From positions 27,484 to 91,483 of the forward strand of contig DATDQB010000020.1 in assembly GCA_035292445.1 (NCBI GenBank): DNA of 64,000 nt, given 5' to 3'. The notes under the pieces are model-generated. The model was not told where the DNA came from and did not search any database. It saw only the letters and a program-made list of their open reading frames with translations. This DNA comes from Candidatus Omnitrophota bacterium. Lineage in GTDB: Bacteria; Omnitrophota; Gorgyraeia; Zapsychrales; Zapsychraceae. The first letter of the stretch is position 1. Each line of letters starts with the position of its first letter. The position numbers and the translations under genes are program-made. Shown one piece after another: positions 19,191-35,986 of the stretch.

Positions 19191-21143
19191 CTATACAGTA
19201 ATCTTTTCCTTAGATTCTGGAGCGAGCTCTAATTTCTCGTCTTTTTGAATGGATTGTTTGGGTCGGGGCTTGATCTCTAGCTCTCGGCTGCCATAAATAG
19301 CACGGATTTTTGCATCTAAGACCTTCTGCACCTGAAGTGTAGAATTAATGCGTTTTTCAATGTGCTTGTATCCAATAATTTTGTGGAAAAGGTTACGCAA
19401 CTTGATCTTCCAATCCTTCAAACCAAGCGTCGGGTAGGCATCTTCTTTCTCCAAATTCTCGATATTCTCCAGAAGTGAAGTTAAGATGAGCGTCTCTTCG
19501 AAATTCCTTCCATAAGGCAGGAGTTCATCTAGAGGAATAATTTTTTCTTCTTTTTCTAAAGGAGAAAAGTCGCCTGTTTCGATGGCTTTAACCTTCATTT
19601 CTATTTCTTCGGTCACATCCTCCGGTTTAATTAACTTGAATTCCTTTAGGGCATTATCGTACTCTTTGCTCACAAAATAATATTCAAACAGAAGTTTGTG
19701 CTTATTGGGCAATTCTTCAACGTCAAACAGATTATCCAGCTTATATTCCTTGGCCTTTTTACAAAATTCCTCGAACCGCTCCATCCGTTTTAAATACGTG
19801 CTGTTGCCGTCCAGGCTTTCCCAATAAAGATGGCCTTTTGACAGATCGATCCCGTACTTTTCCGGATTGGCGTGGCCCGCCGAGCCCGGGTAATATTCAC
19901 AAAAGTTCAAAGAAGGATTGACCATGCTGAAAGCTTTTTTGTTATCCCTTAAGAAATCCATGAGGTATTTAAAATCGTCTTCCGTCTCCGTAGGCAGGCC
20001 GAACATGATATTGACGCTCACATAAAGGCCTGATTTCTTGCCTTCGCGGAGCACGGCGGCGATATCGACGTCCTTGCAAAGGTTCTTGCCCACATCCATC
20101 AACACTTTTAACGAGGGGGTTTCCATGCCGTAGCCCAAAAGCGTACAGCCGGCTTTTTTGAGCTTCTTGTAAAGAGGCATTCGCATTTCCTTGCGGATAA
20201 CGGCATTCTCAAGATTCCACTTCACCCTTTTGTTAAGCCCCGATTCGATCATCAGATCGCAAAATTTCTCCAGCTCGTTTATCTTTGAATTGGAAATGTT
20301 GTCGCACATGCGGAAATAACAGACGTTGGGGTATTGCTCTAATTGGTATTTGATTTCCGCGAAAACGCGTTCTGCCGTGCGCACGCGGAATTGGTTCATG
20401 AACCCGATGGCGCTGCAATAATTGCACTTATTCACGCATCCCCGCGTTGTGTACGTAGGCAAAGTATTGGGCTGATCGTAATATTTGAATTCAAAATCAC
20501 TGAAATCCGGAAAGGGCAGCGAATCCAGCTTTTTGATAAACTCGGCATGGGGCCCGCGGATCAACTTACCGTTATGTTTATAAACAAAACCGGGAACGGC
20601 TTGGCCCTCTTGGCCATTTTTGACCATCTGCATATAACCTAAAAGCGCATTCTCCCCTTCATCCTGGCTTATGGCATGGATATAATCCCGGGCCAGCAAT
20701 GTATCGGTATTTTCCATAAAGCTCGCGACGTCAGGTCCGCCTAACAGATGGATAAATTCTCCGGGCATCATATTGTGCATATCTTCAAAGAAGATCTCGG
20801 CTAATAACCGCGAGGAGCATTGGCAGGAACACCCTACAACGAGCGGATTTAATTCGCGAAGCCGTTGCATGTACTCAAGGAAAATGGCGCGATTCTCTTT
20901 ATAATAATGCTGCATCGCCTCGCGTTCCATGCAGTAATTATAACCATTGGCCATATCCCAATAGCGCCGGTACTTTTTCCCCCCAAAATTATAAGCATAC
21001 GCATTCAGGTCCAATACGGTACATGAAACGTCATTTTCCCGTAAAAAGCTTTTCAATAGTGCGGGCCCTAAAGGCGGGCATCCGACACCCCAGAACGGCA
21101 TCTGGATAATGACAAGATCGGTTTTATGTCCTTTTTTGATCAT
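19191..21143 (-). CDS. B12-binding domain / radical SAM protein (class B radical SAM, methyltransferase-like)
   Basis: 650 aa. It has an N-terminal cobalamin-binding-like segment and a canonical Cx3Cx2C cluster (TTRGCVNKCNYCS). A strong RBS (AGGGAGG) lies 7 nt upstream of the ATG. Confidence 0.8.
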   Translation of the reverse strand: MIKKGHKTDLVIIQMPFWGVGCPPLGPALLKSFLRENDVSCTVLDLNAYAYNFGGKKYRRYWDMANGYNYCMEREAMQHYYKENRAIFLEYMQRLRELNPLVVGCSCQCSSRLLAEIFFEDMHNMMPGEFIHLLGGPDVASFMENTDTLLARDYIHAISQDEGENALLGYMQMVKNGQEGQAVPGFVYKHNGKLIRGPHAEFIKKLDSLPFPDFSDFEFKYYDQPNTLPTYTTRGCVNKCNYCSAIGFMNQFRVRTAERVFAEIKYQLEQYPNVCYFRMCDNISNSKINELEKFCDLMIESGLNKRVKWNLENAVIRKEMRMPLYKKLKKAGCTLLGYGMETPSLKVLMDVGKNLCKDVDIAAVLREGKKSGLYVSVNIMFGLPTETEDDFKYLMDFLRDNKKAFSMVNPSLNFCEYYPGSAGHANPEKYGIDLSKGHLYWESLDGNSTYLKRMERFEEFCKKAKEYKLDNLFDVEELPNKHKLLFEYYFVSKEYDNALKEFKLIKPEDVTEEIEMKVKAIETGDFSPLEKEEKIIPLDELLPYGRNFEETLILTSLLENIENLEKEDAYPTLGLKDWKIKLRNLFHKIIGYKHIEKRINSTLQVQKVLDAKIRAIYGSRELEIKPRPKQSIQKDEKLELAPESKEKITV

Positions 21144-21270
21144 CAGAACCTCCCTAATTATTTATACTTATATATATTAACATACTGTTTAATTTGTGTC
21201 TTCAACTATTATCTGATTTCATCATTTTTATCAGAATCATAACTATTTGTAGCGAAATGATTTACATAAT
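21144..21270. promoter_or_regulatory. AT-rich intergenic region with RBS; probable internal promoter upstream of the B12-radical-SAM gene
   Basis: The 127-nt gap is strongly AT-rich. The minus-strand reading ends ...TATAAGTATAAATAATTAGGGAGGTTCTGATG, with a -10-like TATAAAT and an AGGGAGG Shine-Dalgarno. Confidence 0.35.
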
Positions 21271-21801
21271 TTATAAAGGCGATTGGATCAATTTCTTTTC
21301 TTCAAGGCCCTCCATAATAGCATCAACGATACCGCCGTGATCAACCCTTTCATCATCATTATTAACGACCAGATCCGGATGCAGCGGAGGTTCAAAGTTT
21401 ATATCGACACCGACCACATGCGTTATCTCACCTGCCAAAGCCTTTTTATATAATCCCTTCGGGTCCCGTTTCATGACGGTGTCCATGGACACATCGAGAT
21501 AAACCTCGAAATATTGGGACAAATTCTTCCTATTCCATTCTTGGGATTCGGGGAACAAAGACAAAAGCGCGAACACGACATCTATGCCCTGCTTTTCCAA
21601 ATACTGGCAGAAGCGGCAGATACGCTGGGCATTCTTCTTTCTTTCCTCAATAGTGTGGCCTAAATCATCGCCCATGATGTTCCTGAAAATATCCCCGTCA
21701 AAGAACACGACCGGACGACCCATGGCCGCCAACCTGTCCCTAAGCTTCCGGCCGATGGTCGTTTTTCCCGCGCCTGACAGACCTATGATCCATATAACCA
21801 T
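21271..21801 (-). CDS. Adenylylsulfate (APS) kinase-family protein; by context a Cj1415-like cytidine diphosphoramidate 3'-kinase
   Basis: 176 aa with the Walker A motif IIGLSGAGKTT and APS-kinase layout. The size and neighbourhood match C. jejuni Cj1415 rather than a sulfate-assimilation operon. Confidence 0.8.
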   Translation of the reverse strand: MVIWIIGLSGAGKTTIGRKLRDRLAAMGRPVVFFDGDIFRNIMGDDLGHTIEERKKNAQRICRFCQYLEKQGIDVVFALLSLFPESQEWNRKNLSQYFEVYLDVSMDTVMKRDPKGLYKKALAGEITHVVGVDINFEPPLHPDLVVNNDDERVDHGGIVDAIMEGLEEKKLIQSPL

Positions 21802-21813
21802 CTTGTTCCTTGC

Positions 21814-22593
21814 TTAATTGACAGAAACTACTTTCCCGTCAACAAATAACTCTTTAGCCAACTCATAATCATTTAAGCCGTCGATCTCAAGCCAGCCGCC
21901 GTTGATCTTGACACCGTAGATATCTTCCCCTTCGTTAATAATGCCCTGGAGCATATCGGTCATGAAAGCCTTTTCAAAGGGACGATCGCAGCCCCACGGT
22001 TTTCCTCCCGCTTGACTTATCTTTTCAGCGTTCAGGAACGATCTTTTGAAAGTATCGATCCCCCGCCCCTTGAATTTCATGAGCCCGATGTAACCCGCCT
22101 GCACGTCGGCAATGGCATGGGCGGGCTGGCCGATCACCTTGATCCTGTCTTTGTCGGCGAACCGCAACGCTTCCGCGTCCGCGAGCGGATCAGTGAACCG
22201 CCTTTTCCAATACCTCTCCCAGTTCATGTCGACCACAACGGAAATATCGTGAGGGGCTGCCATGAGCTTTCGCAGCACATCTTCGTTATAAATGATATCC
22301 CCGTAGGAGACGATCGACTCATCCTTCATTTCATGCTGGACGCACCATAAGGTCATGACCATATTGGTCGTGGCGTAACGCTCATTGACATAATACTTGA
22401 CGTCCTTGCGGGAGATCTTCTGCGCCATGTACCCTTTGACGGCAATGATGTCCCGGATGCCGCAGCGCTTCATCATATCGACCTGATGGTCGAAGATGCT
22501 CGTATCGCCGATCGGCACCAGGCATTTCGGTTTTTCGTCGGTGAATGGCCTTAGCCGCTTGCCCTCACCGGCTGCAAGAATGACAGCATTCAT
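21814..22593 (-). CDS. Nucleotidyltransferase (LicC/MobA-like NTP-transferase); by context a Cj1416-like CTP:phosphoglutamine cytidylyltransferase
   Basis: 259 aa. The N-terminal AVILAAGEGKRLRPFTDEKPKCLVPIG motif is the sugar-/phospho-ligand nucleotidyltransferase signature. Confidence 0.75.
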   Translation of the reverse strand: MNAVILAAGEGKRLRPFTDEKPKCLVPIGDTSIFDHQVDMMKRCGIRDIIAVKGYMAQKISRKDVKYYVNERYATTNMVMTLWCVQHEMKDESIVSYGDIIYNEDVLRKLMAAPHDISVVVDMNWERYWKRRFTDPLADAEALRFADKDRIKVIGQPAHAIADVQAGYIGLMKFKGRGIDTFKRSFLNAEKISQAGGKPWGCDRPFEKAFMTDMLQGIINEGEDIYGVKINGGWLEIDGLNDYELAKELFVDGKVVSVN

Positions 22594-22601
22594 CTTTAAC
22601 C

Positions 22602-23540
22602 TTATCCGTCCGTCGTTTTCTGGCTTAATAAAACGGTTATCCTCGCGAAACTGTTGACGAACCCGAATAACTTCTTCTTGGACAGGTTTTCAAAAAAATC
22701 ATCCACCTTCAAATTCAACGGATATCTCTTTGGAATTTCCGATACATAATAATGGGCGCCCACGGACCTTAATGGCAAAAATCCATTTCCCCGGCAAAGC
22801 GCTTTCAAACTCCGCTTGGTGTAGAGCTTCTTCTTCAACTTGTATTTCCAGACATCGTGGCCTTTAAGCATAGACTTTGAATTAAAGAATTTGCTGTTCT
22901 CGAACCTCGCAAAAATAACACCCAGCGTAGACTCGCAGAGAATGGACTTAAAAGACGGGAAAAGCTCGTATTTCTGCCCAAACAGCAAATAGGTCATGGA
23001 GCGGCAGAACCTGCGGAACGACGTGAAATCATTGAGCCCATAGGCCGAGCGCTGGGCAATAAGTAGATGCCCGCCCGGTTTAAGAACGCGCCAAGCCTCC
23101 TTAATCGTGGTTGTATCATCATAAAGATAATGAAGAACACCGGAGGCCACGATCAGATCAAATGTGTTGTCTTCATAGCTCCATCTCGTTTCAAGATTAC
23201 CCACCGTGAAATAATAGTTGCCGTCGAGATCATCCCTTCGGCAACGCTGGGTGGCGATATCACAGAATTTTTCCGAAATATCGATGCCATGGATCTCATG
23301 CCCGCGCTGGCCTATCCGCAACGCGGTCTGGCCTGCGCCGTAACCCAGCTCCATGACCTTAGCGCCCTTGGGAAGTTCAAGCTCATCGACATATTTCAAG
23401 ACTTTCTCTAACCGGCGATTGAGCGAACGGACCGTGTGGCTATCCCAGTCATCATACTGTTTATCCCACTTGACGATCTGTTGGCTGTTCCACCAGCCGC
23501 TCACGGCTTCGATCTGCTGTTCTTTGGTAATATTTTTCAT
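22602..23540 (-). CDS. Class I SAM-dependent methyltransferase (Cj1419/Cj1420-like candidate)
   Basis: 312 aa. Motif I is VMELGYGAGQTA and the post-II motif is VLKPGGHLLIAQ. Confidence 0.7.
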   Translation of the reverse strand: MKNITKEQQIEAVSGWWNSQQIVKWDKQYDDWDSHTVRSLNRRLEKVLKYVDELELPKGAKVMELGYGAGQTALRIGQRGHEIHGIDISEKFCDIATQRCRRDDLDGNYYFTVGNLETRWSYEDNTFDLIVASGVLHYLYDDTTTIKEAWRVLKPGGHLLIAQRSAYGLNDFTSFRRFCRSMTYLLFGQKYELFPSFKSILCESTLGVIFARFENSKFFNSKSMLKGHDVWKYKLKKKLYTKRSLKALCRGNGFLPLRSVGAHYYVSEIPKRYPLNLKVDDFFENLSKKKLFGFVNSFARITVLLSQKTTDG

Positions 23541-23562
23541 CGCGTCCCCAATATTGATCAGA

Positions 23563-25530
23563 TTAAACTAAGATTTCCACTTTTTGTGCATTTTGCGTAA
23601 TGTTTAAATAACTTTCTAAGATCTCAGGTACAAATACGTTCGGCAGTTTATAAGGAACGATATATTTCTCCCGTGGGCCATCCAAAAATTCCTCCACCAT
23701 TTTAACGCCTTCAGCATAATCATTCATAGCCCTCAAGCTCGAACCATAACCGTTCTTGGCATTCTCGCGCAAGATCTGGTATTGCGGCCTGTAGAGCGCT
23801 AAGACCGGTTTGTGTCCGTAGATGGCCTCAAAAAAGACCGTGCTGGGGATGTCGCACAGGACACGGTCGATATAAGGAAACCATTTGGTGACCTTATGCG
23901 AATCGAATTGGATATTTTCATAATTATTCTTGCGTATGATCTCCGCCATCAGATCAACGCTCTGTCCGGGTTGAATGAGCGCCTTCCAAATGAAGAAAAT
24001 ATCTTTTCTCTTCGAGAAGTATTCGGCCAAAGCCTTGTGCCACTGAACGAACTCCGCGGGAAAGGGCTGGTTCTTCTGCACGGACCTGCCGGGAGTCGCC
24101 CCGTAGATGATGGGGACAAAAAGGACCACGCGCCTGCCGCCGGCGGAAACAACGGGCCTGATCTTTTGGTCCTTCGGGAACATGCGGGTCAATTTCCGGA
24201 AAAGATAGGAAAATTCGTGAACTTGCGGATACGCATAATTGAATTCCTTTACAAGCGACTTCTCATGCTCCGCTTCGCTGGCCGACGGGCTGAAAAAGAT
24301 GTCATATTGCCTATTCACGTAAAAAAACCGGCTTTTACACTCATAGGCGTCTGAGCCGTGCGCGAAACCGATGCTTTTTGTCGATGGCGTCAGCCTGGCG
24401 GCCGCGATCGCCGCATGCTCATCGACCGTCCATATATTGGGCGTTGCCACGAAATCAATGTTATTTCTTACATAAAATTCTTTATAGTCCTTAATTCTCG
24501 CGAGCAACTCGGGACAGATATCAAAATAAAAATACTTAAACCGCGACTTAAGGATATGGGAAACATCGATCCCGCATAAATTATTAATCCATCGCATGAC
24601 ATCTCCCCGCAGGATCTTATGGAACAAATCCTCACATGCAACATAGCCCGCTGGATCATGAAGCCCGGTCTCTATACCCCTCGCCCCTAAGTGACTCAAC
24701 GAAAGTTTTTTGGCCGCCTTGCCGGTCTCGAAGTAAATATCAAAACCGTATTTGCGTGAATCCATGACAAAATCCATCGTGCCCATAAGATCGCCGAGAA
24801 CAAAGATCCGCCCTTTCGGTAAATTTGCTTGTTGCGATTTAATACATATCTTCAATCCCCTGTAATAATTCTTAAGTTTTGAGACGGGTAGGATCTTTTT
24901 CAACGAAGCTTTAAAAGTTCGAGGATGGATAGTCGCCTTCAAAGACCGTAAAAAAGAAGGTTTTCTAATTACCGGTACAGGCGCATTAAAAGCAAGACGT
25001 TCGTAGGCTATGCCCCTATCCTTGCAAAGCGGCTCTATTAACTGGGAGAACGGGCTTTCACCGACGGTAAAGGACTGGTCCAGCATTCTTCCGAAAGGAT
25101 GGCCTGAGGGATCGCTCTCTAATAACCGCTCCATCTCTTCGGGGGTGTACTTTGGCCCGTAGAAAAAGATCTTTCCCGGCTTTGCCGACTCGATGAACTT
25201 ACGCAAGATTCTTGTGCTAAGGATTACGTTGTCGGTGAGATATTTGATCGTAAAATAATAAATTGTTGCCAAATTGATCCCTAACTTCTGCGCCTCCGGA
25301 AAGGCCTCTTTAAGCTGTTTGTCAAAATCGTCATACCACGCCAATTGTGCCAAGAGGAATTCATCCGTATTACCCCTGACCTCATAGGAGGTATAAAAAT
25401 CTTCAAGCGGGACATACGAAATGCCACAACGTTCAAGGTCCAATTGCGCCCGCTCGTTTAAGGCTACGGCCCGGGTGTTGGCAGGAAAGGTATAACTCTC
25501 ATGCCATTGTTCAACTAAACAGTAGTCCAT
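23563..25530 (-). CDS. Large hypothetical protein with a GT-B-like C-terminal region (candidate transferase; paralog of 50910-52766)
   Basis: 655 aa. A C-terminal pattern (DIPSTVFFEAIYGHKPVLAL) is typical of GT-B sugar-nucleotide-binding domains. An N-terminal block (PGKIFFYGPKYT) is shared with the 618-aa ORF at 50910-52766. Confidence 0.4.
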   Translation of the reverse strand: MDYCLVEQWHESYTFPANTRAVALNERAQLDLERCGISYVPLEDFYTSYEVRGNTDEFLLAQLAWYDDFDKQLKEAFPEAQKLGINLATIYYFTIKYLTDNVILSTRILRKFIESAKPGKIFFYGPKYTPEEMERLLESDPSGHPFGRMLDQSFTVGESPFSQLIEPLCKDRGIAYERLAFNAPVPVIRKPSFLRSLKATIHPRTFKASLKKILPVSKLKNYYRGLKICIKSQQANLPKGRIFVLGDLMGTMDFVMDSRKYGFDIYFETGKAAKKLSLSHLGARGIETGLHDPAGYVACEDLFHKILRGDVMRWINNLCGIDVSHILKSRFKYFYFDICPELLARIKDYKEFYVRNNIDFVATPNIWTVDEHAAIAAARLTPSTKSIGFAHGSDAYECKSRFFYVNRQYDIFFSPSASEAEHEKSLVKEFNYAYPQVHEFSYLFRKLTRMFPKDQKIRPVVSAGGRRVVLFVPIIYGATPGRSVQKNQPFPAEFVQWHKALAEYFSKRKDIFFIWKALIQPGQSVDLMAEIIRKNNYENIQFDSHKVTKWFPYIDRVLCDIPSTVFFEAIYGHKPVLALYRPQYQILRENAKNGYGSSLRAMNDYAEGVKMVEEFLDGPREKYIVPYKLPNVFVPEILESYLNITQNAQKVEILV

Positions 25531-26588
25531 AAATTATCCTTGGCTCTTTCATAATCTTTCACCATAGATGTCATTGAGTTAAACGCTTCTTCTGAGGCCA
25601 GGGCCTTGACCTCGTCTAATTTTTCCTTCCGTTCATCCTCGGAAAAATCGCGCGGACACTTCTCCCGCTCCAACACCGTGGGAGTATAAGGCGTCGGCTC
25701 CGTTTCGAGAAAGGAACAAATTTGCGATAAAACTTCGTGTGTATTTGTCACGGTTTCATCAAAGGTGACCCTTAAAACCCTCTCACGTCCTTTCTGTGAA
25801 AGCGACTTTAAGGCTTTGTTATAGTGCTTTCTGATGCCTTCGATCATATAAATAACCCTGCCCATCTCGGACAAGCTATTGTACTTTGCCGCCCAATCCG
25901 CGGCATAATAAGGAACGACACTCCCGTTAACTTGGGTCAATACAACCTGGCAGATCTTGCTGTCATAGGTCTCGGAACCGTGCGTGATCCCTTTTTTGTC
26001 GGCACGGGCTGTTGACCTTACTTCCTCGCCATAATGGTGATTAAACCATGAGTAGACCATATCCACCGGATGACGATCGATGAATACTATCTTTAGGAAA
26101 GGAAAAGCCTCGAACCAGCTTTTCGCGTGCCACAAAGCGTCGGACAACGCCAAAACGAGCAGCGGCCGCTTTGTTTCAATATCATCGACGATAAGCCCGC
26201 CCCTTTCTGAAAGGAACCGGTCAAGGTATTTCAAAGGGTCATCCGTATTAAATATGCTGGTTTCATCGACAAAACGCATGTTCATTTCCCTGCCGATCAT
26301 GTTGTCGTATAACTTGAAATCAACTATATAGCGCAGCAAGAACACCAGCACCTCATCGGATAATTTGCCTAAATGATTAAGCGTTCCCAGATGCTCCAAC
26401 AAAATGCTCATCTTGAAATGTTCCGCCCGCTCAAGGCTGCCCACAATGGGCGCCAGCATGCTCTTTCCAGACGTGGGGGCGCCGGTCACGATGACCAAAT
26501 CCTTCAGGAACGTTTCTTTGACCAGTTTTAATTCTTTATTTGCGCTGCTCATATTATTTTTCCGTGAGTTCACTGATCTTCTTTTCAC
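25515..26588 (-). CDS. Sulfotransferase-fold protein (3'-phosphonucleotide-dependent group transferase)
   Basis: 357 aa. A 5'-PSB-like P-loop (IVTGAPTSGKSMLAP) and a 3'-PB-like motif (FIDRHPVDMVYSW, compare eukaryotic RNPKDVAVSYYHF) are both present. Confidence 0.65.
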   Translation of the reverse strand: MKRRSVNSRKNNMSSANKELKLVKETFLKDLVIVTGAPTSGKSMLAPIVGSLERAEHFKMSILLEHLGTLNHLGKLSDEVLVFLLRYIVDFKLYDNMIGREMNMRFVDETSIFNTDDPLKYLDRFLSERGGLIVDDIETKRPLLVLALSDALWHAKSWFEAFPFLKIVFIDRHPVDMVYSWFNHHYGEEVRSTARADKKGITHGSETYDSKICQVVLTQVNGSVVPYYAADWAAKYNSLSEMGRVIYMIEGIRKHYNKALKSLSQKGRERVLRVTFDETVTNTHEVLSQICSFLETEPTPYTPTVLEREKCPRDFSEDERKEKLDEVKALASEEAFNSMTSMVKDYERAKDNLWTTV

Positions 26589-26727
26589 ACCAATCCTTCA
26601 ACACGGTCAAATTCTTGATCGTTTGCTGGACGCTGTACCTGGAATCAGGCCTTTGCCTGGCTGTCTCTTCCCACGTGCGTCCGTCTTTGCTTCCTTTGAT
26701 CTTGGTCATGCACAACCTCTTTCTTGC

Positions 26728-27723
26728 CTAAACCTGGCCGACAACCTGACGACCTTCATAGATCGCTTCTTGCATTGAATAACGGCCATCATATTCTTTT
26801 GCCATCGACTGCAATAACGCAAACGCATCATGTGAGGCCATGCGCTGGATCTCCTCCAACTTCTTGTCCCTGGCCTGCGGATGTACTATCCTCGGGCAGT
26901 TTTCCTTTTTGCAAACACGGGCCGTCTGCCGTGTAGGAGATGTCCCTAAGAAATCAGCAATCTCTTTAATGACGGCGTCCGTATGCGCCGCCAGTCTTTC
27001 AAAAGAAATGATCTTTATCTGCTGTCGCTGTGACGGCGATAAAGCATCATATTTCTGATAATGGCTGTCTTCCAATTTCTTTATCATATGGATGATCCTG
27101 TCGATCTCGGACATATTAAGGTAATCCTGTTCCCAACCGGCGGCGTAATAAGGAAGCGTCTTCGCTCCCCATTCGATCGTCAACGTGGCATTTCGCGGGT
27201 TATCAAAATAGTCGCCGCCATAACCTTTGCCGTACCAGTTAAGCACCATGTCCACGGGGTGTCGCGTGATATGAATCATCCGCATTTGCGGAAAGGAGCT
27301 GAAATAAATATCGGCATGCCAGAGGGCATCATGCACCATGAGAAGATAGAGCCGCCCAGAGCTCTCCATCGCCATTAACGCCGCATCGCCTTCTTTGGCA
27401 AACAGTCTTTTGAGGTAATGGACCGGCCGCGATGATCTCCAAACGCTGCTTAGGTCCCCAAACCTTAAATTCATATTTCTGCCGATCGTCAAATCATAAA
27501 CCATCGCATCAACCGCATAGCGCATCAAACATTTGGCCGCATCATCGGGGATAGACCTTAGGACCTGCATCATGGGAACCTGTTCCATCAAATAATTGAT
27601 GGCGACATGTTCCACTCTGGCCATGCTTGAGACGATCGGCGCCAGCAATGTCTTGCCCGAGCGGGTCAATCCGGTGATCAACACGAGGTTTTTGATGAAA
27701 TTTTGCCGGGTTATTTTAGTCAT
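26728..27723 (-). CDS. Sulfotransferase-fold protein, paralog of 25515-26588
   Basis: 331 aa. It carries the same two motifs (LITGLTRSGKTLLAP and ITRHPVDMVLNWYGKGYG) and is clearly alignable to the neighbouring paralog. Confidence 0.65.
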   Translation of the reverse strand: MTKITRQNFIKNLVLITGLTRSGKTLLAPIVSSMARVEHVAINYLMEQVPMMQVLRSIPDDAAKCLMRYAVDAMVYDLTIGRNMNLRFGDLSSVWRSSRPVHYLKRLFAKEGDAALMAMESSGRLYLLMVHDALWHADIYFSSFPQMRMIHITRHPVDMVLNWYGKGYGGDYFDNPRNATLTIEWGAKTLPYYAAGWEQDYLNMSEIDRIIHMIKKLEDSHYQKYDALSPSQRQQIKIISFERLAAHTDAVIKEIADFLGTSPTRQTARVCKKENCPRIVHPQARDKKLEEIQRMASHDAFALLQSMAKEYDGRYSMQEAIYEGRQVVGQV

Positions 27724-27732
27724 GGGAGATCT

Positions 27733-28419
27733 TTATTTTTTTATGCTGTCCGCGATCCGAAGATCGCTGTTAAAAAATTTCTCGATCAAAAGGCGGTCAT
27801 GTTCACTCATGGGCTTTTGCCGTTCCGGATGCCATTCAATGCCTAAGATCGGATGGGTTTCATGGATGAACCCTTCAATAATGTCATCTTTGACGGCCCA
27901 AGCTAATAGCCCCGCCCCTAAATGGTTTTCTTTAACGGCACAACGATGATAGGAATTAACCTCGAGCTTATCCGAGCCGTAAAACTCTTTAAAATAGTCC
28001 ATCGTAATAGTGACCGTATGAGATTTTGTCACGTGCCCGTCAATTTCGCCTTCCAGCTTTCCGCCAAAATAACAATTTATCAATTGCATGCCACGGCACA
28101 CGCCTAAGACGGGCTTTTTGTTTGCAATAGCCCAGTCCAATAGTTTTGCTTCCGTTATATCCCGGGCCGATCCAGCCCATTTTCCGGACGAATTCTTTTT
28201 TAGTTCCACATTTTCACCATTGCCCAAAATCAACGCCTCGCAACCGAGCTCCTTCACGTAAGTTTCCACGTCCTTGAGCCGGCTTGGTATCAATAAAGGC
28301 ATGTAATCGCATGACTCCAGGTAAACGACCCAGTCGTGGCTGAGGGCATCGCGCAGTTCAACGTATTCCTTCGTCTCAACGGTCCTCATAGTGATGGCAA
28401 CTTTCTTGATCTTACGCAT
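27733..28419 (-). CDS. Class I glutamine amidotransferase-like / peptidase C26 hydrolase; by context a Cj1417-like gamma-glutamyl-CDP-amidate hydrolase
   Basis: 228 aa. It has the GATase1 nucleophile elbow LGVCRGMQLIN and a C-terminal IEWHPE (His/Glu) block. Confidence 0.75.
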   Translation of the reverse strand: MRKIKKVAITMRTVETKEYVELRDALSHDWVVYLESCDYMPLLIPSRLKDVETYVKELGCEALILGNGENVELKKNSSGKWAGSARDITEAKLLDWAIANKKPVLGVCRGMQLINCYFGGKLEGEIDGHVTKSHTVTITMDYFKEFYGSDKLEVNSYHRCAVKENHLGAGLLAWAVKDDIIEGFIHETHPILGIEWHPERQKPMSEHDRLLIEKFFNSDLRIADSIKK

Positions 28420-30832
28420 GGCGCTGACCCATTTCGGTTAAGGGGGTTATTATCTTTTTTTCACAATCCAGGAAAACCTGTTCGGATTTCAACAGCCTCT
28501 CGTATATCAACTCGCCGCATCCGATCGCCGCAGGAATGCCGAATTCAGCGCAGCGAATGGAAATATGGGAAGCCACCCCGCCGTACTTGGTGATGATGCC
28601 CATCGGGCTTTTGGCAAAGATCCAGTCAAAGCCCGGGTCCGCGTTCTCAAGAAGCACAATATGGCCGCTCAGGTCTATTTCTTGCATAGTCTTAATGGTG
28701 TTAAAAGGTAAGAGCTTCCCCTGGATGTTCTTTTTCGTAATAAAATTGGGCTTTGCTTCATAGGGGGCAACAAAGTAAAAATCTTTAACCGATGCAATTA
28801 CAGGGGGAAGTATCACCAAGTCATACCATTCCCTTTCCTTTTTATGCCGATCAATGCTTTGTTGGATCATGTGCCTGGCATAATGGTGGTCGCCCTTTTC
28901 CGGATTCCTGAATTTCATGAGCGTCGGCAGATCCGCGTGGCACAGCTCTTCCCGCTTAAACCCCAACAGCTCACCCGCCTCGGCAATGAGCTCAAGCGCG
29001 TCGCTGAGGCTCTTGGTGAACTCAAACTTCGCATATTCCCGGTTTTCGGTCGCTGATCTGATGAAATTCAGCAGATCTTCTGCCTTACCGTTAAGGCCGC
29101 GCTCGCGCATAGCATCCGTAATCCGTTGATATACAGCCGGAGAGACTTCAAATTTATGGTCTGGCCGCTTTGTCGCTTTGGATGCGGCTTTTTGGCTAAA
29201 AAGGTGCGATGACTGGTCATAACGCGGCGTTGTAATGTCATAGGTCCCCGCGCGCAGATGGCCATAGCGCTTCAGAAAATCCTTTTTGGAAAGTTTTCCG
29301 TCCTGAAATAAATAGGAATCGTCATTAAACTGCGAGGCGACCGTACGGATGGAATTGAAAAAATCATGGTAAAAATCTTCCGTGATGACCCCCTGGTCCT
29401 TTAGACTGTTCAACAAACTTTTTGCAATGAATGCCAGCCTTGCCTGGCGAGAAAAAGGCAGCGTGCCGTATTTCTTGCAGTTTTGCAAGATATGGAATGC
29501 CGTATTCAATATTTCCCAGGGTGTCTTTTCCTGTTTCTCATGAAAGGCAATGATCTGCTCGCGCCGATCAGTAAGAAAACGGACCATATCAAGGTCTTCT
29601 TGGGAGATCCTTTGGTAATCCTGAAGAAGCCTCGCCGTTAAGCGCTTGATCGCCTGCTTAAACTCATCGATCCCCCCCCTTGTGAAACCCTCTTGCAGGA
29701 GAGCCTCGAGGGATCTGTCTGTCGAGAAATCATAACATGTCCAAAGGATCTCAAATTCCACCTTATCCTGAAGCGACGGATTCTTCTTTAATTTCCCTAA
29801 ATAAAAATTGATCAGCTTTTCTCTCAGATCGTCAGAAATGTCGACCGGTGTCAGCGAATTGAAACTGATGCGGGTATCGATATAGGGCTTTTTGGCAAAC
29901 GACACCATGAGCTCAGCGGGAAAAACATCATAATACCCAAGCGATGTCCTGGCCTCATGCCAGATCTCATCGGTGACAATGAAACTATAGATGGTATAGT
30001 CAAGCGTGTTGGGGCGGCTTCCGATGATCTCCGATGGGTTCCAATCCGGCATGTCCCCGAACACGGTCCCCTCCCCGGCCAAATGCGGTATCCGCCGGGA
30101 ATACCGATTGAACTTTTTGGCCATGTCGATGATCAGATGCTCGACAAATTCATCTTGAGGGATTTCCAACGCGCTGTTAGCCGCCAACGGCCGCACCTGG
30201 AAGATCACCACGCGATTGGACCGCGTGATCGCGAATTCAATATCAAGCACTTGGCCGGAAAATAATGCCTCGATCTCTTTAACAGCCCTCAATAAATTCG
30301 CCCATTTCTCCTCCAACTCGCTTCCATTGAAGTGGGATATATAAACCGTCTGGCCTTCCATGCCTCCTGTCACCGTGTCCGTCCTGCCGCTTCTCTCATC
30401 AAAATTAATGACATAATACGGCGCGTTGGTGCCGATCTGCCGGGTGAAAATAACGCCGCTCACGATGATATCCCGCGTCTGCGGCTGGATAAGGATCTGG
30501 TCATCCTTGGTATGGACTTTTGATTTGCTGTATGAGGCAACAACGCGTTCAACGGCTTCCCTGATATGCTCCGGCTTGGGCTCGACATTCAACTCGCTAT
30601 GAAAAGCTCCGGCCTGTGATTGAAGCTGTGTGTCCTCGGCGAAAGCGGAGCTGCGCACAATAAGTCTTTCCGATTTGAACCGCTCACAGACCGCTTCGAC
30701 CACTTTCTCTTTGCCGTTCACCCATTCATGGACGGTACAATAGAAAATGTCTTCGATCCGGGAGTTCTTTACCCTCGGTTTCAACCAGTTCAGCACGTTT
30801 GTTTTTGATAATCTTTCTATTTCAGATTGCAT
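28412..30832 (-). CDS. PEP-synthase / pyruvate-phosphate-dikinase-like phosphotransferase lacking the PEP-binding barrel; by context a Cj1418-like L-glutamine (amide) kinase
   Basis: 806 aa. It has an N-terminal PPDK_N/ATP-grasp hallmark (LIVRSSAFAEDTQLQSQAG) and a C-terminal phospho-His swivel domain (KYGGVASHISIRCAEFGIPAAIGCG). There is no TIM-barrel PEP domain. Confidence 0.7.
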   Translation of the reverse strand: MQSEIERLSKTNVLNWLKPRVKNSRIEDIFYCTVHEWVNGKEKVVEAVCERFKSERLIVRSSAFAEDTQLQSQAGAFHSELNVEPKPEHIREAVERVVASYSKSKVHTKDDQILIQPQTRDIIVSGVIFTRQIGTNAPYYVINFDERSGRTDTVTGGMEGQTVYISHFNGSELEEKWANLLRAVKEIEALFSGQVLDIEFAITRSNRVVIFQVRPLAANSALEIPQDEFVEHLIIDMAKKFNRYSRRIPHLAGEGTVFGDMPDWNPSEIIGSRPNTLDYTIYSFIVTDEIWHEARTSLGYYDVFPAELMVSFAKKPYIDTRISFNSLTPVDISDDLREKLINFYLGKLKKNPSLQDKVEFEILWTCYDFSTDRSLEALLQEGFTRGGIDEFKQAIKRLTARLLQDYQRISQEDLDMVRFLTDRREQIIAFHEKQEKTPWEILNTAFHILQNCKKYGTLPFSRQARLAFIAKSLLNSLKDQGVITEDFYHDFFNSIRTVASQFNDDSYLFQDGKLSKKDFLKRYGHLRAGTYDITTPRYDQSSHLFSQKAASKATKRPDHKFEVSPAVYQRITDAMRERGLNGKAEDLLNFIRSATENREYAKFEFTKSLSDALELIAEAGELLGFKREELCHADLPTLMKFRNPEKGDHHYARHMIQQSIDRHKKEREWYDLVILPPVIASVKDFYFVAPYEAKPNFITKKNIQGKLLPFNTIKTMQEIDLSGHIVLLENADPGFDWIFAKSPMGIITKYGGVASHISIRCAEFGIPAAIGCGELIYERLLKSEQVFLDCEKKIITPLTEMGQRHA

Positions 30833-32069
30833 GCGATACCTTCTTGTTTCCGGTCACTTCAAAGACCTTCTCCCCCATGACTTCGGCCAGGTATTGTGCG
30901 ATCAACTGATTTCCTTTTTTTGTAATGTGGCCCCCATACAGATCCTCTGTATAAAAAGTCGCCAAATCCTGCTTAAGAATAAAATCGCTTAGATCAATGA
31001 CGGTCATCTCCTTGCCGATCTCTTGGTAGAATGGACGATAAGCAGATCCCCTCTTAAAATGCACAATACGCTTTAGGTCCATAAGCTGCGGTATAACGAC
31101 GATGACGGGCTGATGCCCGCGACCTTCGGCCCCGGCCTTGAAACGCATCAAAATGGATTTTAACAAAGCACAAGATTCTTTATCAGAATACATTTGATGG
31201 GCTTGATCGATATTACCCTCCATAATGATCTGAAACGGCCTGTTCTCGAGCGTCGAATTGGAACGCTTCACGGACCGCGCCAGAACCCGGACAATGAGGC
31301 TTGCGATCAGCCGGCTGTTCCTTTTAAAATTACGAAAATAACTTAGCGTGTAAGGAAAACGGAATTGCATATGCCGAAACTTTGAGGCGTAAAACCCGTC
31401 GTTTTTCCGAAGGTCTCTCAATTTCGGTTCCAGCTCTCTAAAATCCTCTTGTGTTTGCATCACGTTCGGTAAAAGCTCCAACTGTCCGTCTTTGAGCACG
31501 AACCTCGGCTTGAAAGCAAACGTGTTACCGAACTCCAGATAATGCTTCCAATACGACTGCACGCGGCAGATCGTCTCCGGGACAAAGGAGAATATAACAA
31601 TCTTCACCGAATCCGCCAGCTGCGTCCGCTCATAACGTAACAATGTTTGGTCAACCCCGTAATTTCCCACCCCGTAATTGGACACGCCGATACCTAACAG
31701 CTGCGTCAAATAGACCTGCCAAGTCTCGTCGTCATTGACCTGCCGGCAAAAATTGTAAGAATCCCCGAAGGTGGCGATTGTCTCTTCTTTATCCGCCAAC
31801 AACGGATTTGTCCTGCCGCCTTTGGCATCGATCGTGAACGTCGTACGAACGTCGCGCGCCTTTTCCGCGCCCGAGGTATGGGGCCTTCGCACCCATCCTA
31901 ACTGCCCATCGAAGCCGTGATTGAAAAACTTCTCCAACCCCTGCTTGTCCAAAGCCGGCAATTCATCTGCTTCCGTGATAAGCCATTGGAAATCCCTGTG
32001 CAAATATTTGATCAGCGCAATAAAAGCCACCTCAAGCAATATAATTCCTATTAGGATAGAGTAGATCAT
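30822..32069 (-). CDS. Membrane-anchored SGNH/GDSL-family hydrolase (candidate glycan O-acyl esterase/transferase)
   Basis: 415 aa. It has an N-terminal TM helix and a GDSL block-I TIATFGDSYNF. The size and anchor resemble AlgJ/AlgX-type proteins. Confidence 0.5.
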   Translation of the reverse strand: MIYSILIGIILLEVAFIALIKYLHRDFQWLITEADELPALDKQGLEKFFNHGFDGQLGWVRRPHTSGAEKARDVRTTFTIDAKGGRTNPLLADKEETIATFGDSYNFCRQVNDDETWQVYLTQLLGIGVSNYGVGNYGVDQTLLRYERTQLADSVKIVIFSFVPETICRVQSYWKHYLEFGNTFAFKPRFVLKDGQLELLPNVMQTQEDFRELEPKLRDLRKNDGFYASKFRHMQFRFPYTLSYFRNFKRNSRLIASLIVRVLARSVKRSNSTLENRPFQIIMEGNIDQAHQMYSDKESCALLKSILMRFKAGAEGRGHQPVIVVIPQLMDLKRIVHFKRGSAYRPFYQEIGKEMTVIDLSDFILKQDLATFYTEDLYGGHITKKGNQLIAQYLAEVMGEKVFEVTGNKKVSHAI

Positions 32070-34613: not shown

Positions 34614-35393
34614 CTATTTCCTTACAGGAATCCCCTGCTTTTCCATATCTTCTTTACATGTCATCGGTGTAATGCTCGTAAAATGAAAGATGCTGGCAGC
34701 GGATACGGCCGAGGCCCCTTGTTGGATCGCGGCACTGCAATCACTGGGGCTCGCCGCTCCTCCCGCCACAATTAAAGGAATATCCCTGACGATGGAGGCC
34801 GCATACCGGATCAGATCCAGATCGTACCCGCTCATTTTTCCGTCCAGATCCACGTTATTGAGCAATATCTCCCCGACTTTACAATATTCCATCAATATTT
34901 TAAGGACCTCTTCAAAGGTATAGCGGATCTCACGCCCCGCATGGGAATACAACTTATACTGGCCATCCTCCCCTTTTCGAACATCGATGGATGCGACAAT
35001 GCATTGGCTTCCAAAGACCTCGACCGCCTGTTTGACGACATCAATGTCGTCAAAAATAATCGTGTTCAGCGATACTTTATCCGCTCCCGCCTCCAACGCG
35101 TTGGCGATGTCTTGGCAGGACCTTAAACCACCCCCTACAGTTAACGGCATAAAACAATGGTCCGCAACAGTTGAAACGGTATGCAGGTCAATGCCCCGAC
35201 CCTTTTTGGAGGCGTCGATATCCAGTAAGATCAACTCATCAATGTTACGGTTGTTATACACCCTGGCCACCGTTATCGGATTGCCCAGATTGCGACGGAC
35301 ATCGAACTGGATCGTTTTAACGACGGAATAACCGTCCAACAGGACAAGCGGTATGACGCGGTGGCGCAACATGATCAATATTTCCCCTTGCAA
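34614..35393 (-). CDS. HisF-like cyclase subunit (imidazole-glycerol-phosphate-synthase-like; acetamidino-sugar amidotransferase component), copy 1
   Basis: 259 aa. RVIPLVLLDGYSVVKTIQF...DELILLDIDAS...PLTVGGGLRS is present. Confidence 0.8.
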   Translation of the reverse strand: MQGEILIMLRHRVIPLVLLDGYSVVKTIQFDVRRNLGNPITVARVYNNRNIDELILLDIDASKKGRGIDLHTVSTVADHCFMPLTVGGGLRSCQDIANALEAGADKVSLNTIIFDDIDVVKQAVEVFGSQCIVASIDVRKGEDGQYKLYSHAGREIRYTFEEVLKILMEYCKVGEILLNNVDLDGKMSGYDLDLIRYAASIVRDIPLIVAGGAASPSDCSAAIQQGASAVSAASIFHFTSITPMTCKEDMEKQGIPVRK

Positions 35394-35986
35394 AAATTTT
35401 CAAGTAACTTAAGCCCGGCCTTTTGGCTTTTCTCCGGATGGAATTGAAAACCTAAAATGTTCTCCTTTTGGACGCCGGCAATAAAATCCTTCCCGTAATG
35501 GCAGGTGGCCGTTTGGACCTTTTCATCGGGAACGAATTCGTAACTGTGCACGAAATAAAAACACGGGGCGGCCGGCATGTTATCAAATACAGGAAAATTG
35601 CCAAAACTCACATCATTCCATCCTATGTGGGGCAGCTTGACGCCGTTAAGGCTATGGCGCAAATGGGACACCCTTCCTTTAATAAGGTCCAACCCTTCGC
35701 TTGGCCCGCCTTCTTCCCCTTGGCTGGCGAGCAGTTGCATCCCCAAACAAATGCCCAAAATGGGTGTCTTATCTTCGATAACTCTTTTTCTGATGGCCTC
35801 ACGCAATCCCGTCGATTTTAAACGGCTTGAACCTTCGGCAAAACTTCCGACACCAGGCAAGATCATCTTTTCACAATTAATGACGTCTTCAAGACGATCC
35901 GACACTTTATGTTCCACGTTCAAGAACTTGAGCGCACGGCTGACGCTGGCAATATTGCTGATCTTTAGATCGATGACCGTGATCAT
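35375..35986 (-). CDS. HisH-like glutamine amidotransferase subunit
   Basis: 203 aa with a GATase1 fold (ILGICLGMQLL). It forms a pair with the HisF-like gene. Confidence 0.8.
   Translation of the reverse strand: MITVIDLKISNIASVSRALKFLNVEHKVSDRLEDVINCEKMILPGVGSFAEGSSRLKSTGLREAIRKRVIEDKTPILGICLGMQLLASQGEEGGPSEGLDLIKGRVSHLRHSLNGVKLPHIGWNDVSFGNFPVFDNMPAAPCFYFVHSYEFVPDEKVQTATCHYGKDFIAGVQKENILGFQFHPEKSQKAGLKLLENFCKGKY

Follow-up and report, generated by a model that had tools for sequence, protein, structure and literature searches.

Gene content of the locus

The window analysed here is a 64-kb stretch of DNA from an Omnitrophota MAG. The reading frames of the four proposed donor enzymes and of the methyltransferase are present on the minus strand at the coordinates listed below, and the four belong to a tightly packed, co-directional array. 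The genes discussed below are as follows:

30822..32069, minus strand: U415, membrane-anchored SGNH/GDSL-like protein, a conserved accessory gene
28412..30832, minus strand: K806, 806 aa, L-glutamine kinase homologue, Cj1418 type
27733..28419, minus strand: GAT228, 228 aa, class I glutamine-amidotransferase-fold hydrolase, Cj1417 type (gamma-glutamyl-CDP-amidate hydrolase)
26728..27723, minus strand: ST331, sulfotransferase-fold protein, candidate phosphoramidyl transferase or PAPS sulfotransferase
25515..26588, minus strand: ST357, sulfotransferase-fold paralogue of ST331
23563..25530, minus strand: U655, 655 aa, conserved protein of no family, possible glycan-modifying transferase
22602..23540, minus strand: MT312, 312 aa, class I SAM-dependent methyltransferase
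21814..22593, minus strand: NT259, 259 aa, LicC-like nucleotidyltransferase, Cj1416 type (CTP:phosphoglutamine cytidylyltransferase)
21271..21801, minus strand: APSK176, 176 aa, APS-kinase-fold protein of the Cj1415 clade (cytidine diphosphoramidate 3'-kinase type)
19191..21143, minus strand: rSAM650, B12-binding radical SAM methyltransferase-like protein, directly downstream, membership uncertain

K806 shares 8 nt at its end with the start of GAT228, and 11 nt at its start with U415, which is located just upstream of the block. The block lies in a sugar-coat gene island between nonulosonic-acid and glycosyltransferase genes, and its flanks encode NeuB, a CMP-sugar synthetase, aminotransferases and glycosyltransferases. 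The first-pass annotation described K806, GAT228, NT259 and APSK176 as a phosphoramidate-donor enzyme set. All four reading frames are real, but they are not contiguous, as ST331, ST357, U655 and MT312 are interposed between GAT228 and NT259. That annotation did not mention ST331 and ST357, both of which bear directly on its argument against sulfation, and it also missed U655 and U415.

Homologues of the C. jejuni donor enzymes

In the MeOPN pathway of C. jejuni, Cj1418 is the L-glutamine kinase, Cj1416 the CTP:phosphoglutamine cytidylyltransferase, Cj1417 the gamma-glutamyl-CDP-amidate hydrolase and Cj1415 the CDP-amidate kinase, Cj1419/1420 are methyltransferases and Cj1421/1422 are the MeOPN transferases. 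Counterparts of Cj1415-Cj1418 had been proposed at this locus, and the direct alignment to the C. jejuni proteins, which were taken from loci L094-L097, supported the proposal with identities of 29-41%. The sizes also track each other as claimed (806/228/259/176 aa here and 779/200/253/170 aa for Cj1418/1417/1416/1415).

K806 consists of an N-terminal ATP-grasp domain (PPDK_N) and a C-terminal phospho-histidine swivel domain (PEP-utilizers), and the domain search revealed no PEP/pyruvate-binding barrel, in agreement with the first-pass annotation. The protein passes the NF004508/PRK05849 model over its full length (858.8 bits, cutoff 501), which is also the best curated model for Cj1418 (1168.9), and its alignment with Cj1418 is likewise full length (32.6% identity over 815 columns, E 1e-147). 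The swivel histidine H756, within the motif GGVASH, is invariant in 12 diverse homologues and is equivalent to H737 of Cj1418 (GGANSH). Only the swivel domain aligns with PpsA (29 bits vs 859 bits on the Cj1418 family model), and the Cj1418-type reading of K806 was retained. Homologues of 46-49% identity are named 'glutamine kinase' by JGI.

GAT228 carries a Peptidase_C26/GATase domain, is 29% identical to Cj1417 (E 1e-21) and keeps its Cys motif GVCRGMQ and its His-Glu motif WHPE. The best NCBIfam model is NF045546 (Cj1417), which leads the other families by 60 bits (the next scores 46 bits). The Cj1417-type reading is supported by family rank, motifs and identity, but the score of 107.5 bits is below the equivalog cutoff of 250. 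NT259 has an NTP_transferase domain, and its best PDB match is LicC (1jyk), the alignment being confined to the N-terminal 100 residues. Cj1416 has no curated model; the full-length alignment of NT259 with it (34% identity, E 9e-55) agrees with the Cj1416-type assignment made earlier.

The domain of APSK176 is APS_kinase (E 1.8e-37). The protein scores above the cutoff on NF004041/PRK05541 (177 bits vs 127) and narrowly misses the one set for TIGR00455, the APS-kinase equivalog (135.8 vs 138.7), the same pattern as that of Cj1415 (292.9 on NF004041 vs 126.4 on TIGR00455), to which it is 41% identical (E 2e-41). Clade HMMs favour the Cj1415 clade by +144 bits. APSK176 and Cj1415 have the motifs SLFxE...NR and NVVGVD, whereas the canonical ones are ISPY and FTGI(S/D), and both Phe positions that we take to be the adenine-ring stacking residues of canonical APS kinases are replaced in the two proteins. 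On sequence grounds, APSK176 belongs to the Cj1415 clade and not with the CysC-type APS kinases. The Cj1415-type reading was accordingly kept, and neither HMM separation nor motifs pointed to CysC-type enzymes as the best homologues, the outcome that had been named as contradicting it.

The K806 family is large and diverse (1,517 clusters at 50% identity, E<=1e-30), its downstream partners vary, and its hits come from at least 582 species. In 73 of the 80 loci sampled, the hydrolase homologue directly follows the kinase homologue, and in 62 of the 80 the cytidylyltransferase homologue comes next. The Cj1415-clade kinase is fused to a K806 homologue in six loci, and in DPANN archaea the K806 homologue is fused to a cytidylyltransferase domain, sometimes with an APS-kinase domain as well. 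An APS-kinase-like gene within 10 kb was not found in 47/80 loci, so the 3'-phosphorylation may not be universal. Several related loci carry Methanosarcinales MAG labels. With the same genes in hundreds of species, the 'rare' P-N decoration is probably no Campylobacter oddity.

We consider it probable (about 0.75) that the block encodes a working C. jejuni-type phosphoramidate-donor pathway whose product is transferred to the surrounding nonulosonic-acid glycan. Homology, domain architecture, catalytic residues, synteny and fusions were observed in the proteins and loci themselves, and the substrates and products are those that the characterised C. jejuni enzymes suggest. K806 would phosphorylate L-glutamine, NT259 would convert L-glutamine phosphate and CTP to CDP-L-glutamine, and GAT228 would hydrolyse the latter to glutamate and cytidine diphosphoramidate. 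APSK176 would phosphorylate the 3'-OH, giving 3'-phospho-cytidine-5'-diphosphoramidate, a structural analogue of PAPS, and the phosphoramidate group would finally be placed on a sugar of the glycan specified by the surrounding genes, which contains nonulosonic acid.

The transfer step and the question of sulfation

ST331 and ST357 are 36% identical paralogues, and both match Pfam Sulfotransfer_3 and Sulfotransfer_1. ST331 contains a 5'-PSB-like TRSGKT and a 3'-PB-like RHPVDMVLN motif, ST357 contains TSGKS and RHPVDMVYS, and the family profile matches PDB sulfotransferases (E 1e-15 to 1e-9). They form one subfamily with ST322 of locus L088, a neighbour of the K806 homologue that is 63% identical to ST331, and ST318 of locus L090. 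No member of NF058596, the C. jejuni MeOPN-transferase family, is present among the window proteins. The AF2 model of that family has a confident C-terminal domain, from which a sulfotransferase fold is predicted for Cj1421/22, and the RDPIDSLKS motif of Cj1422 resembles the 3'-phosphate-binding motif of sulfotransferases. Unlike ST331/ST357, Cj1421/22 have no sequence-level match to Pfam sulfotransferase families, and profile-profile comparison linked the two groups only via the 3'-PB motif (probability 6.5%).

When loci are counted as independent, some of which belong to related lineages, sulfotransferase-fold genes occur in 16/25 loci with a Cj1415-clade kinase vs 6/55 without (Fisher p=2.3e-6) and in 13/15 loci with Cj1419/1420-type methyltransferases (p=1.3e-7). 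None of the 16 loci pairing a sulfotransferase-fold gene with a Cj1415-clade kinase has a sulfurylase within 10 kb. The predicted fold of Cj1421/22 and the co-occurrence with the kinase make ST331 and ST357 plausible phosphoramidyl transferases, and the chances that one or both act like Cj1421/Cj1422 appear evenly balanced. Transfer is the weakest step of the proposed pathway, and the membrane-anchored, SGNH-like U415 and U655 are the alternative transferases.

Homologues of U415 were detected in 11/80 loci and are almost mutually exclusive with sulfotransferase-fold genes; in six of these loci the homologue comes immediately after the Cj1415-clade kinase. U415 keeps the motifs GDS, GVGNYGxDQ and YGGH, and its profile matches the GDSL protein 4rsh (E 1.8e-4). 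We know of no precedent for phosphoramidyl transfer by an SGNH-type serine enzyme, which counts against U415 in this role. U655 has no Pfam or NCBIfam match, its profile has no significant PDB match and its single-sequence AF2 model is unusable (pLDDT 33). Proteins of 638 aa occupy the corresponding position in the Omnitrophota loci L088 and L090 and share 35% identity with it. MT312 (Methyltransf_11/25/31) had been matched to the Cj1419/1420 role but is not an orthologue of these proteins: it aligns with Cj1419 at 21% identity over only 102 residues, the SAM-binding core, and is a generic class I enzyme. There are true orthologues of Cj1419/1420 in 15 other loci (30-60% identity), but none here. 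The Radical_SAM protein rSAM650 is closest in NCBIfam to B12-rSAM methyltransferases, all below cutoffs, and its equivalents come after the module in L088 and L090. MT312 or rSAM650 may O-methylate the group.

It is possible, though rather doubtful, that the donor pathway is real while ST331/ST357 are PAPS-dependent sulfotransferases, with U415, U655 or an outside gene transferring the phosphoramidate. The PAPS genes would then lie elsewhere in the genome, and the glycan would bear both sulfate and phosphoramidate. The Pfam and PDB matches of ST331/ST357 are compatible with this, and the distribution of U415 fits alternative transferases. In L088, the ST331 orthologue is clustered with an ATP sulfurylase (PK-PUA-ATP-sulfurylase) translationally coupled to a CysC-type kinase, which favours PAPS as the donor of the subfamily. 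The closest relatives (kinase homologue 62% identical) have ATP sulfurylase and a CysC-type kinase, and sulfate-activation genes lie <=10 kb from the module in about 10/86 loci. Against this, tblastn detected no ATP sulfurylase or CysDN in the 64-kb window, as the first-pass annotation had stated for the sulfurylase, and none of the genes called ~10 kb beyond each end is a sulfate-activation gene (~84 kb covered in all). The Cj1415-clade gene is the sole one here with an APS-kinase fold, the co-occurrence described above holds across phyla, and the sulfotransferase fold is also the one predicted for the MeOPN transferases of C. jejuni. The earlier argument against sulfation is therefore sustained as to the missing sulfurylase but weakened by two sulfotransferase-family genes and by the relatives' ATP sulfurylase, on account of which the glycan may be sulfated.

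It is improbable that the Cj1415-1418 homologues make a different product here, from another amide or nucleotide substrate or for a non-glycan acceptor. The identities of just 29-41%, the score of GAT228 and the diversity of the K806 family would allow it, but the full four-gene set is kept with catalytic residues and synteny, and the block is located between nonulosonic-acid and glycosyltransferase genes. A sulfation cassette, in which APSK176 is a true APS kinase supplying PAPS to ST331/ST357 and K806, GAT228 and NT259 are unrelated or end at CDP-amidate, is very improbable: the APS_kinase match, the near miss on TIGR00455, the two sulfotransferase-family genes in the operon and the sulfurylase of relatives are outweighed by the clade assignment of APSK176, the fusions to glutamine-kinase homologues, the lack of a sulfurylase nearby, the association of ATP sulfurylase with CysC-type kinases (3/7 vs 6/73) and not with the Cj1415 clade (1/7 vs 24/73), and locus L066, where a CysN-CysC fusion occurs alongside a clade-A kinase, implying distinct roles.

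Comparison with known systems

K806 shares the N-terminal ATP-grasp and phospho-histidine swivel domains with PpsA/PPDK but has no PEP/pyruvate-binding domain. The PAPS pathway (Sat/CysDN, CysC and sulfotransferases) resembles the proposed one in its APS-kinase and sulfotransferase folds and in the logic of a 3'-phosphorylated nucleotide donor, and some related loci have real sulfate-activation genes; it differs in that the kinase here is not CysC-type by TIGR00455 and motifs, is embedded with three CDP-amidate-making genes and has no sulfurylase within the ~84 kb. Genes similar to Cj1418/1417/1416 were annotated on the basis of structure in a glycoconjugate region of Borg elements of Methanoperedens (bioRxiv 10.1101/2024.11.05.622173). 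These are likewise MeOPN-like genes outside Campylobacter; however, they belong to archaeal extrachromosomal elements, and no Cj1415-type kinase or sulfotransferase-fold partners were described.

In contrast to the C. jejuni MeOPN locus, four genes break up the gene order here, the DNA comes from an Omnitrophota MAG and the neighbouring genes make nonulosonic acids, not a Kps-type capsule. The NF058596 transferase (DUF8374+DUF2972) and the Cj1419/1420-type methyltransferase are absent, and the locus instead has two Pfam-type sulfotransferase paralogues, U655, the SGNH-like U415 in the membrane-protein class and the B12-radical-SAM enzyme rSAM650. The two systems agree in their four donor enzymes, which have the same architecture, key residues and kinase clade at 29-41% identity, in their setting within a surface-glycan locus, and in the sulfotransferase-fold proteins found here, a fold also predicted for Cj1421/22.

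Donor-pathway genes and their counterparts in Campylobacter jejuni

The interval 19191-32069 is a co-directional run of ORFs on the minus strand, with gaps of −16 to +22 nt save for two of about 130 nt. A scan of this interval found neither an enrichment of promoter-like or terminator-like matches nor a clear terminator inside it. ORF calls and Pfam returned exactly the positions and sizes that the first-pass annotation had assigned to four phosphoramidate-donor genes:

28412-30832, minus strand: K806, counterpart of Cj1418, 806 aa; Pfam PPDK_N and PEP-utilizers swivel domain, without PEP barrel
27733-28419, minus strand: GAT228, counterpart of Cj1417, 228 aa; Pfam Peptidase_C26/GATase
21814-22593, minus strand: NT259, counterpart of Cj1416, 259 aa; Pfam NTP_transferase
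21271-21801, minus strand: APSK176, counterpart of Cj1415, 176 aa; Pfam APS_kinase

Between the hydrolase and cytidylyltransferase genes lie two sulfotransferase-family paralogues of 331 and 357 aa (ST331 and ST357) and a 655-aa protein without a family (U655), all three absent from that annotation, together with the class I methyltransferase (MT312). The gene of a 415-aa membrane protein (U415), likewise unmentioned, overlaps the start of the 806-aa gene. The order usual among related loci is that of C. jejuni, from which the window departs by its four inserted genes.

The cj1416-region primer CS-350 (van Alphen et al. 2014, PMC3907429) matched one metagenome contig, whose 200-aa ORF matched a C. 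jejuni protein with 100% identity, and the lookup led to complete C. jejuni loci. A cj1420 primer from the literature had no exact match among GTDB genomes or viral contigs. The C. jejuni locus begins with HddA, GmhA2 and HddC, followed by a pair of 612-625-aa DUF8374+DUF2972 proteins (Cj1422 and Cj1421), the methyltransferases Cj1420 and Cj1419 and the 779-aa PPDK_N/PEP-utilizers protein Cj1418, and ends with Cj1417 (200 aa), Cj1416 (253 aa) and Cj1415 (170 aa) ahead of KpsC and KpsS. A sequence search of the PDB with the four window proteins found no structure of Cj1415-Cj1418, only PpsA, GMP synthase, LicC and APS kinases. All four window proteins aligned to their C. jejuni counterparts, with identities of 29-41%, and this direct comparison with the characterised system supports the predicted identity of the pathway.

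K806 is 32.6% identical to Cj1418 across its whole length (E 1e-147). It scored 858.8 bits on NF004508/PRK05849, the model defined by Cj1418 (1168.9 bits), covering profile positions 11-788 of 789 and passing the cutoff of 501. PPDK_N and PEP-utilizers are its only domains, corresponding to an ATP-grasp and a phospho-His swivel, and the PEP/pyruvate barrel is missing. The Cj1418-type active-site residue is also present: the swivel histidine H756 is invariant across 12 diverse homologues and aligns to H737 of Cj1418, reportedly the phosphorylated residue. These results support the assignment of K806 to the L-glutamine kinase family, with the corresponding catalysis predicted. K806 matches a protein of a Candidatus Omnitrophota MAG at 100% identity.

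GAT228, the gene of which overlaps the K806 stop, is 29% identical to Cj1417 (E 1e-21). On NF045546, defined by Cj1417 (328.5 bits), it reached 107.5 bits (profile positions 3-189 of 198), under the equivalog cutoff of 250. No other family nevertheless came closer than about 60 bits to this score, PuuD (NF008471) giving 22.6, and the Cys (GVCRGMQ) and His-Glu (WHPE) motifs are kept as in Cj1417. NT259 aligned with Cj1416 at full length (34% identity, 256 columns, E 9e-55) and with LicC along the N-terminal 100 residues only; Cj1416 has no curated model, and the two proteins share identical generic NCBIfam matches. PpsA, PuuD, LicC and CysC were rejected as identities of the four proteins, the Cj-type family or protein matching far better each time.

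Distribution of the module and the two kinase clades

The K806 family comprised 1,517 clusters (50% identity) at E<=1e-30; it occurred in at least 582 GTDB species. Its hosts include Omnitrophota, Planctomycetota, Bacteroidota, Clostridia, Proteobacteria, CPR, Haloferax and Thaumarchaeota, many DPANN or Methanosarcinales MAGs, and plasmids of Vibrio, Azospirillum and roseobacters. Among the cultured organisms that carry it are Haloferax elongans ATCC BAA-1513, Cohnella panacarvi, Coprococcus ammoniilyticus, Azospirillum spp. and Vibrio alfacsensis. Further counts refer to the best 80 loci of a GTDB protein-pattern scan among these at least 582 species, with no Campylobacter among the 80. The kinase homologue was directly followed by the hydrolase in 73 of them, with the cytidylyltransferase following in 62, and 33 had an APS-kinase-like gene within 10 kb. 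Fusions were also seen: DPANN glutamine-kinase homologues (P0053-P0120) are joined to a PF01467 cytidylyltransferase and sometimes also to a PF01583 APS-kinase domain, and in L046, L048, L072, L081, L084 and L085 (Acidobacteriota and Proteobacteria) a Cj1415-clade kinase is fused N-terminally to the glutamine-kinase homologue.

APSK176 is 41% identical to Cj1415 (E 2e-41). It scored 177 bits on NF004041/PRK05541 (above the cutoff of 127) and 135.8 on TIGR00455 (below the cutoff of 138.7). Cj1415 gave the same pattern (292.9 bits, and 126.4 under 138.7), which was reversed in CysC-type control kinases. Clade HMMs separated the APS-kinase-like proteins near the module into two groups, a CysC-type group and clade A, the latter holding APSK176, Cj1415 and the N-terminal fusions to K806 homologues (six loci). 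Clade A carries the motifs DLG(H/Y), S(L/M)FxE...NR and NVVGVD against the canonical LGFS, ISPY and FTGI(S/D), in which the Phe residues of LGFS and FTGI stack on the adenine ring in APS-kinase structures. The corresponding motifs of APSK176 are DLGH, SLFPESQEWNR and HVVGVD, the second and third being common to Cj1415. The CysC-type kinases of L023, L028, L088 and L090, as well as the CysN-CysC fusion of L066, a locus that also has a clade A kinase, scored best on TIGR00455, PRK00889 or PRK03846. Curated models, clade motifs and fusions thus agree with the initial view that the fourth gene is of Cj1415 type, set it apart from CysC, and support the placement of APSK176 as a cytidine diphosphoramidate kinase type with a predicted preference for CDP-amidate.

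ATP sulfurylase or CysDN genes within 10 kb were associated with CysC-type kinases (3/7 vs 6/73, p=0.03) and showed no association with clade A (1/7 vs 24/73). Searches of the 64-kb window with Sat and CysD/N queries (tblastn) gave no match, as first reported for ATP sulfurylase, and neither sulfurylase nor CysDN was found among the genes of the 10-kb extensions beyond each end.

Sulfate-activation genes do adjoin the module elsewhere. Fusions of 729-755 aa combining a pyruvate-kinase barrel, PUA_2 and ATP sulfurylase (Pfam E 1e-70, 4e-47 and 1e-72) lie beside it in the Omnitrophota locus L088 (15174-17363) and in archaeal L016, L017 and L028; in L088 the start of a CysC-type kinase gene lies within the fusion gene, a translationally coupled arrangement. 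On Vibrio alfacsensis plasmid pYa108 (L005, 127869-138195), divergent cysD, cysN and SLC13 permease genes adjoin the kinase homologue, hydrolase and cytidylyltransferase; this locus also has a CDP-glycerol glycerophosphotransferase-family gene, and its kinase homologue is extended at the N terminus by about 190 aa. The closely related Omnitrophota locus L092 has an Inositol_P (CysQ-like 3'-phosphonucleotidase) gene at 1-573, upstream of the kinase homologue by about 9.5 kb, that could serve in recycling PAP or 3',5'-CDP.

Candidate enzymes of the transfer and methylation steps

Pfam and NCBIfam searches of the window proteins gave no match to NF058596 or DUF2972, and BLASTP of the C. jejuni MeOPN (O-methyl phosphoramidate) transferases Cj1421/22 against all window ORFs returned nothing. 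ST331 and ST357 match Pfam Sulfotransfer_1 and Sulfotransfer_3 and possess both PAPS-type motifs, 5'-PSB and 3'-PB, and their family profile matches PDB sulfotransferases. Such motifs recognise a 3'-phosphonucleotide but do not discriminate between PAPS and 3'-phospho-CDP-amidate.

Iterative HMM searches detected sulfotransferase-fold ORFs in 22 of the 80 loci, the Pfam domain being confirmed for 7 of 10 checked. Such genes were present in 16/25 loci with a clade A kinase vs 6/55 others (p=2.3e-6), and in 13 of the 15 loci where Cj1419/1420 have true orthologues (p=1.3e-7). No sulfurylase lay within 10 kb in any of the 16 loci combining a sulfotransferase-fold gene with clade A. This co-occurrence fits the use of a PAPS-like donor by the sulfotransferase fold, and under such a model ST331 and ST357 are credible candidate phosphoramidyl transferases. 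Profile-profile comparison of the MeOPN-transferase family with the sulfotransferase-fold families recovered only an RDP motif (probability 6.5%), and its profile matched nothing among PDB sequences; the comparison therefore had to be made at the level of the fold.

PAPS-dependent sulfation is a serious alternative for ST331 and ST357. Both belong to an Omnitrophota-specific subfamily, whose member in L088 (63% identical) lies beside the PK-PUA-ATP-sulfurylase fusion coupled translationally to the CysC-type kinase. In the boldest reading, at a probability of roughly 0.4, phosphoramidyl transfer in this pathway would generally fall to sulfotransferase-fold enzymes, with 3'-phospho-CDP-amidate used exactly as PAPS is by sulfotransferases. 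On that reading no member of the ordinary Pfam sulfotransferase families before ST331 and ST357 would have had this activity, P-N decoration of surface glycans would be widespread (at least 582 bacterial and archaeal species, about 1,500 clusters at 50% identity), and at least two alternative downstream modules would exist, one with a sulfotransferase-fold enzyme and a Cj1419/20-type methyltransferase, the other with the SGNH-like U415. The idea of phosphoramidyl transfer by sulfotransferase-fold enzymes, raised by the comparative results, is undescribed as far as the searchable literature shows.

U415 (30822-32069) is a membrane-anchored SGNH/GDSL-like protein conserved across phyla. Its homologues were found in 11/80 loci, in six of them directly after a clade A kinase; they occurred with sulfotransferase-fold genes in 1/11 loci and never with Cj-type methyltransferases. 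This near-exclusive pattern suggests two alternative downstream modules; in the window, U415 and sulfotransferase-fold genes are found together. U655 had orthologues only in L088 and L090 among the sampled loci; its profile matched nothing significant in the PDB, and its single-sequence AF2 model reached a pLDDT of only 33.

MT312, to which a Cj1419/1420 role was first given, is no orthologue of these methyltransferases (21% identity to Cj1419 along 102 residues of the SAM-binding core); orthologues of Cj1419/1420 with 30-60% identity occur in 15 other loci. Several B12-binding radical SAM proteins are encoded in the island (19191-21143, 37998-39743 and 53661-55253). The first weakly resembles P-methyltransferases of the PhpK and Sden_1168 families, but its best match is a RiPP C-methyltransferase model, all matches being under cutoffs; the third is known only through a matching gene in L099. 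Radical SAM equivalents come after the module in L088 and L090.

Glycan context and comparison with the Campylobacter system

Upstream of the block are genes of NeuB, a PseG-like/GNAT protein, a HisH/HisF-like pair, a CMP-sugar synthetase and a B12-radical-SAM enzyme, and downstream those of a B12-radical-SAM enzyme, a GT1 glycosyltransferase, a methyltransferase and a dehydratase; Wzy-like, WecG-like and Bac_transf genes lie farther away. In L088 and L090, too, NeuB adjoins the module, and in L092 it is encoded about 4.5 kb upstream. Given NeuB and the glycan genes around the module, the acceptor is therefore most likely a surface glycan containing nonulosonic acid. For the donor genes, sequence comparison supports the initial proposal; phosphoramidate decoration of such a glycan is predicted, its acceptor being read from the neighbours. 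The HisF-like and HisH-like pair (34614-35986) adjoins NeuB and the GNAT/PseG-like gene, an arrangement repeated in L088. A HisF/HisH pair beside NeuB is typical of pathways for amidino- or acetamidino-modified nonulosonic acids. The window looks like a mosaic, with K806, ST331 and U655 resembling L088-type Omnitrophota loci, and the kinase and U415 resembling L008, L045 and L086.

The phosphoramidate-donor gene set of the Omnitrophota window is real. It is less singular than the first-pass annotation held, because the module is widespread and already named by one annotation pipeline: JGI calls some homologues 'glutamine kinase', and the PGAP names are generic. Where the names 'adenylyl-sulfate kinase', 'PEP-utilizing enzyme', 'gamma-glutamyl-GABA hydrolase family' and 'phosphocholine cytidylyltransferase family' meet in a single operon, annotators should read this pathway, not sulfate assimilation. 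According to a 2019 review (PMC6429109), Campylobacter was the only source of phosphoramidate-modified sugars found up to then. The full donor pathway is present here in an uncultured Omnitrophota bacterium, and the same module in hundreds of species. These span many phyla, among them gut Firmicutes as well as DPANN and other archaea. Provided that the systems are active, decoration of glycans with P-N groups would be a common surface chemistry that has been overlooked, with a bearing on recognition by phages and the immune system. For the transfer step, here and in C. jejuni, a testable candidate is an enzyme of sulfotransferase fold that would act on a PAPS-like donor.

Compared with the C. 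jejuni MeOPN locus, the window is without an NF058596-family transferase and a Cj1419/1420-type methyltransferase. The donor pathway is the same as that of C. jejuni, whereas the downstream enzymes and the host differ.
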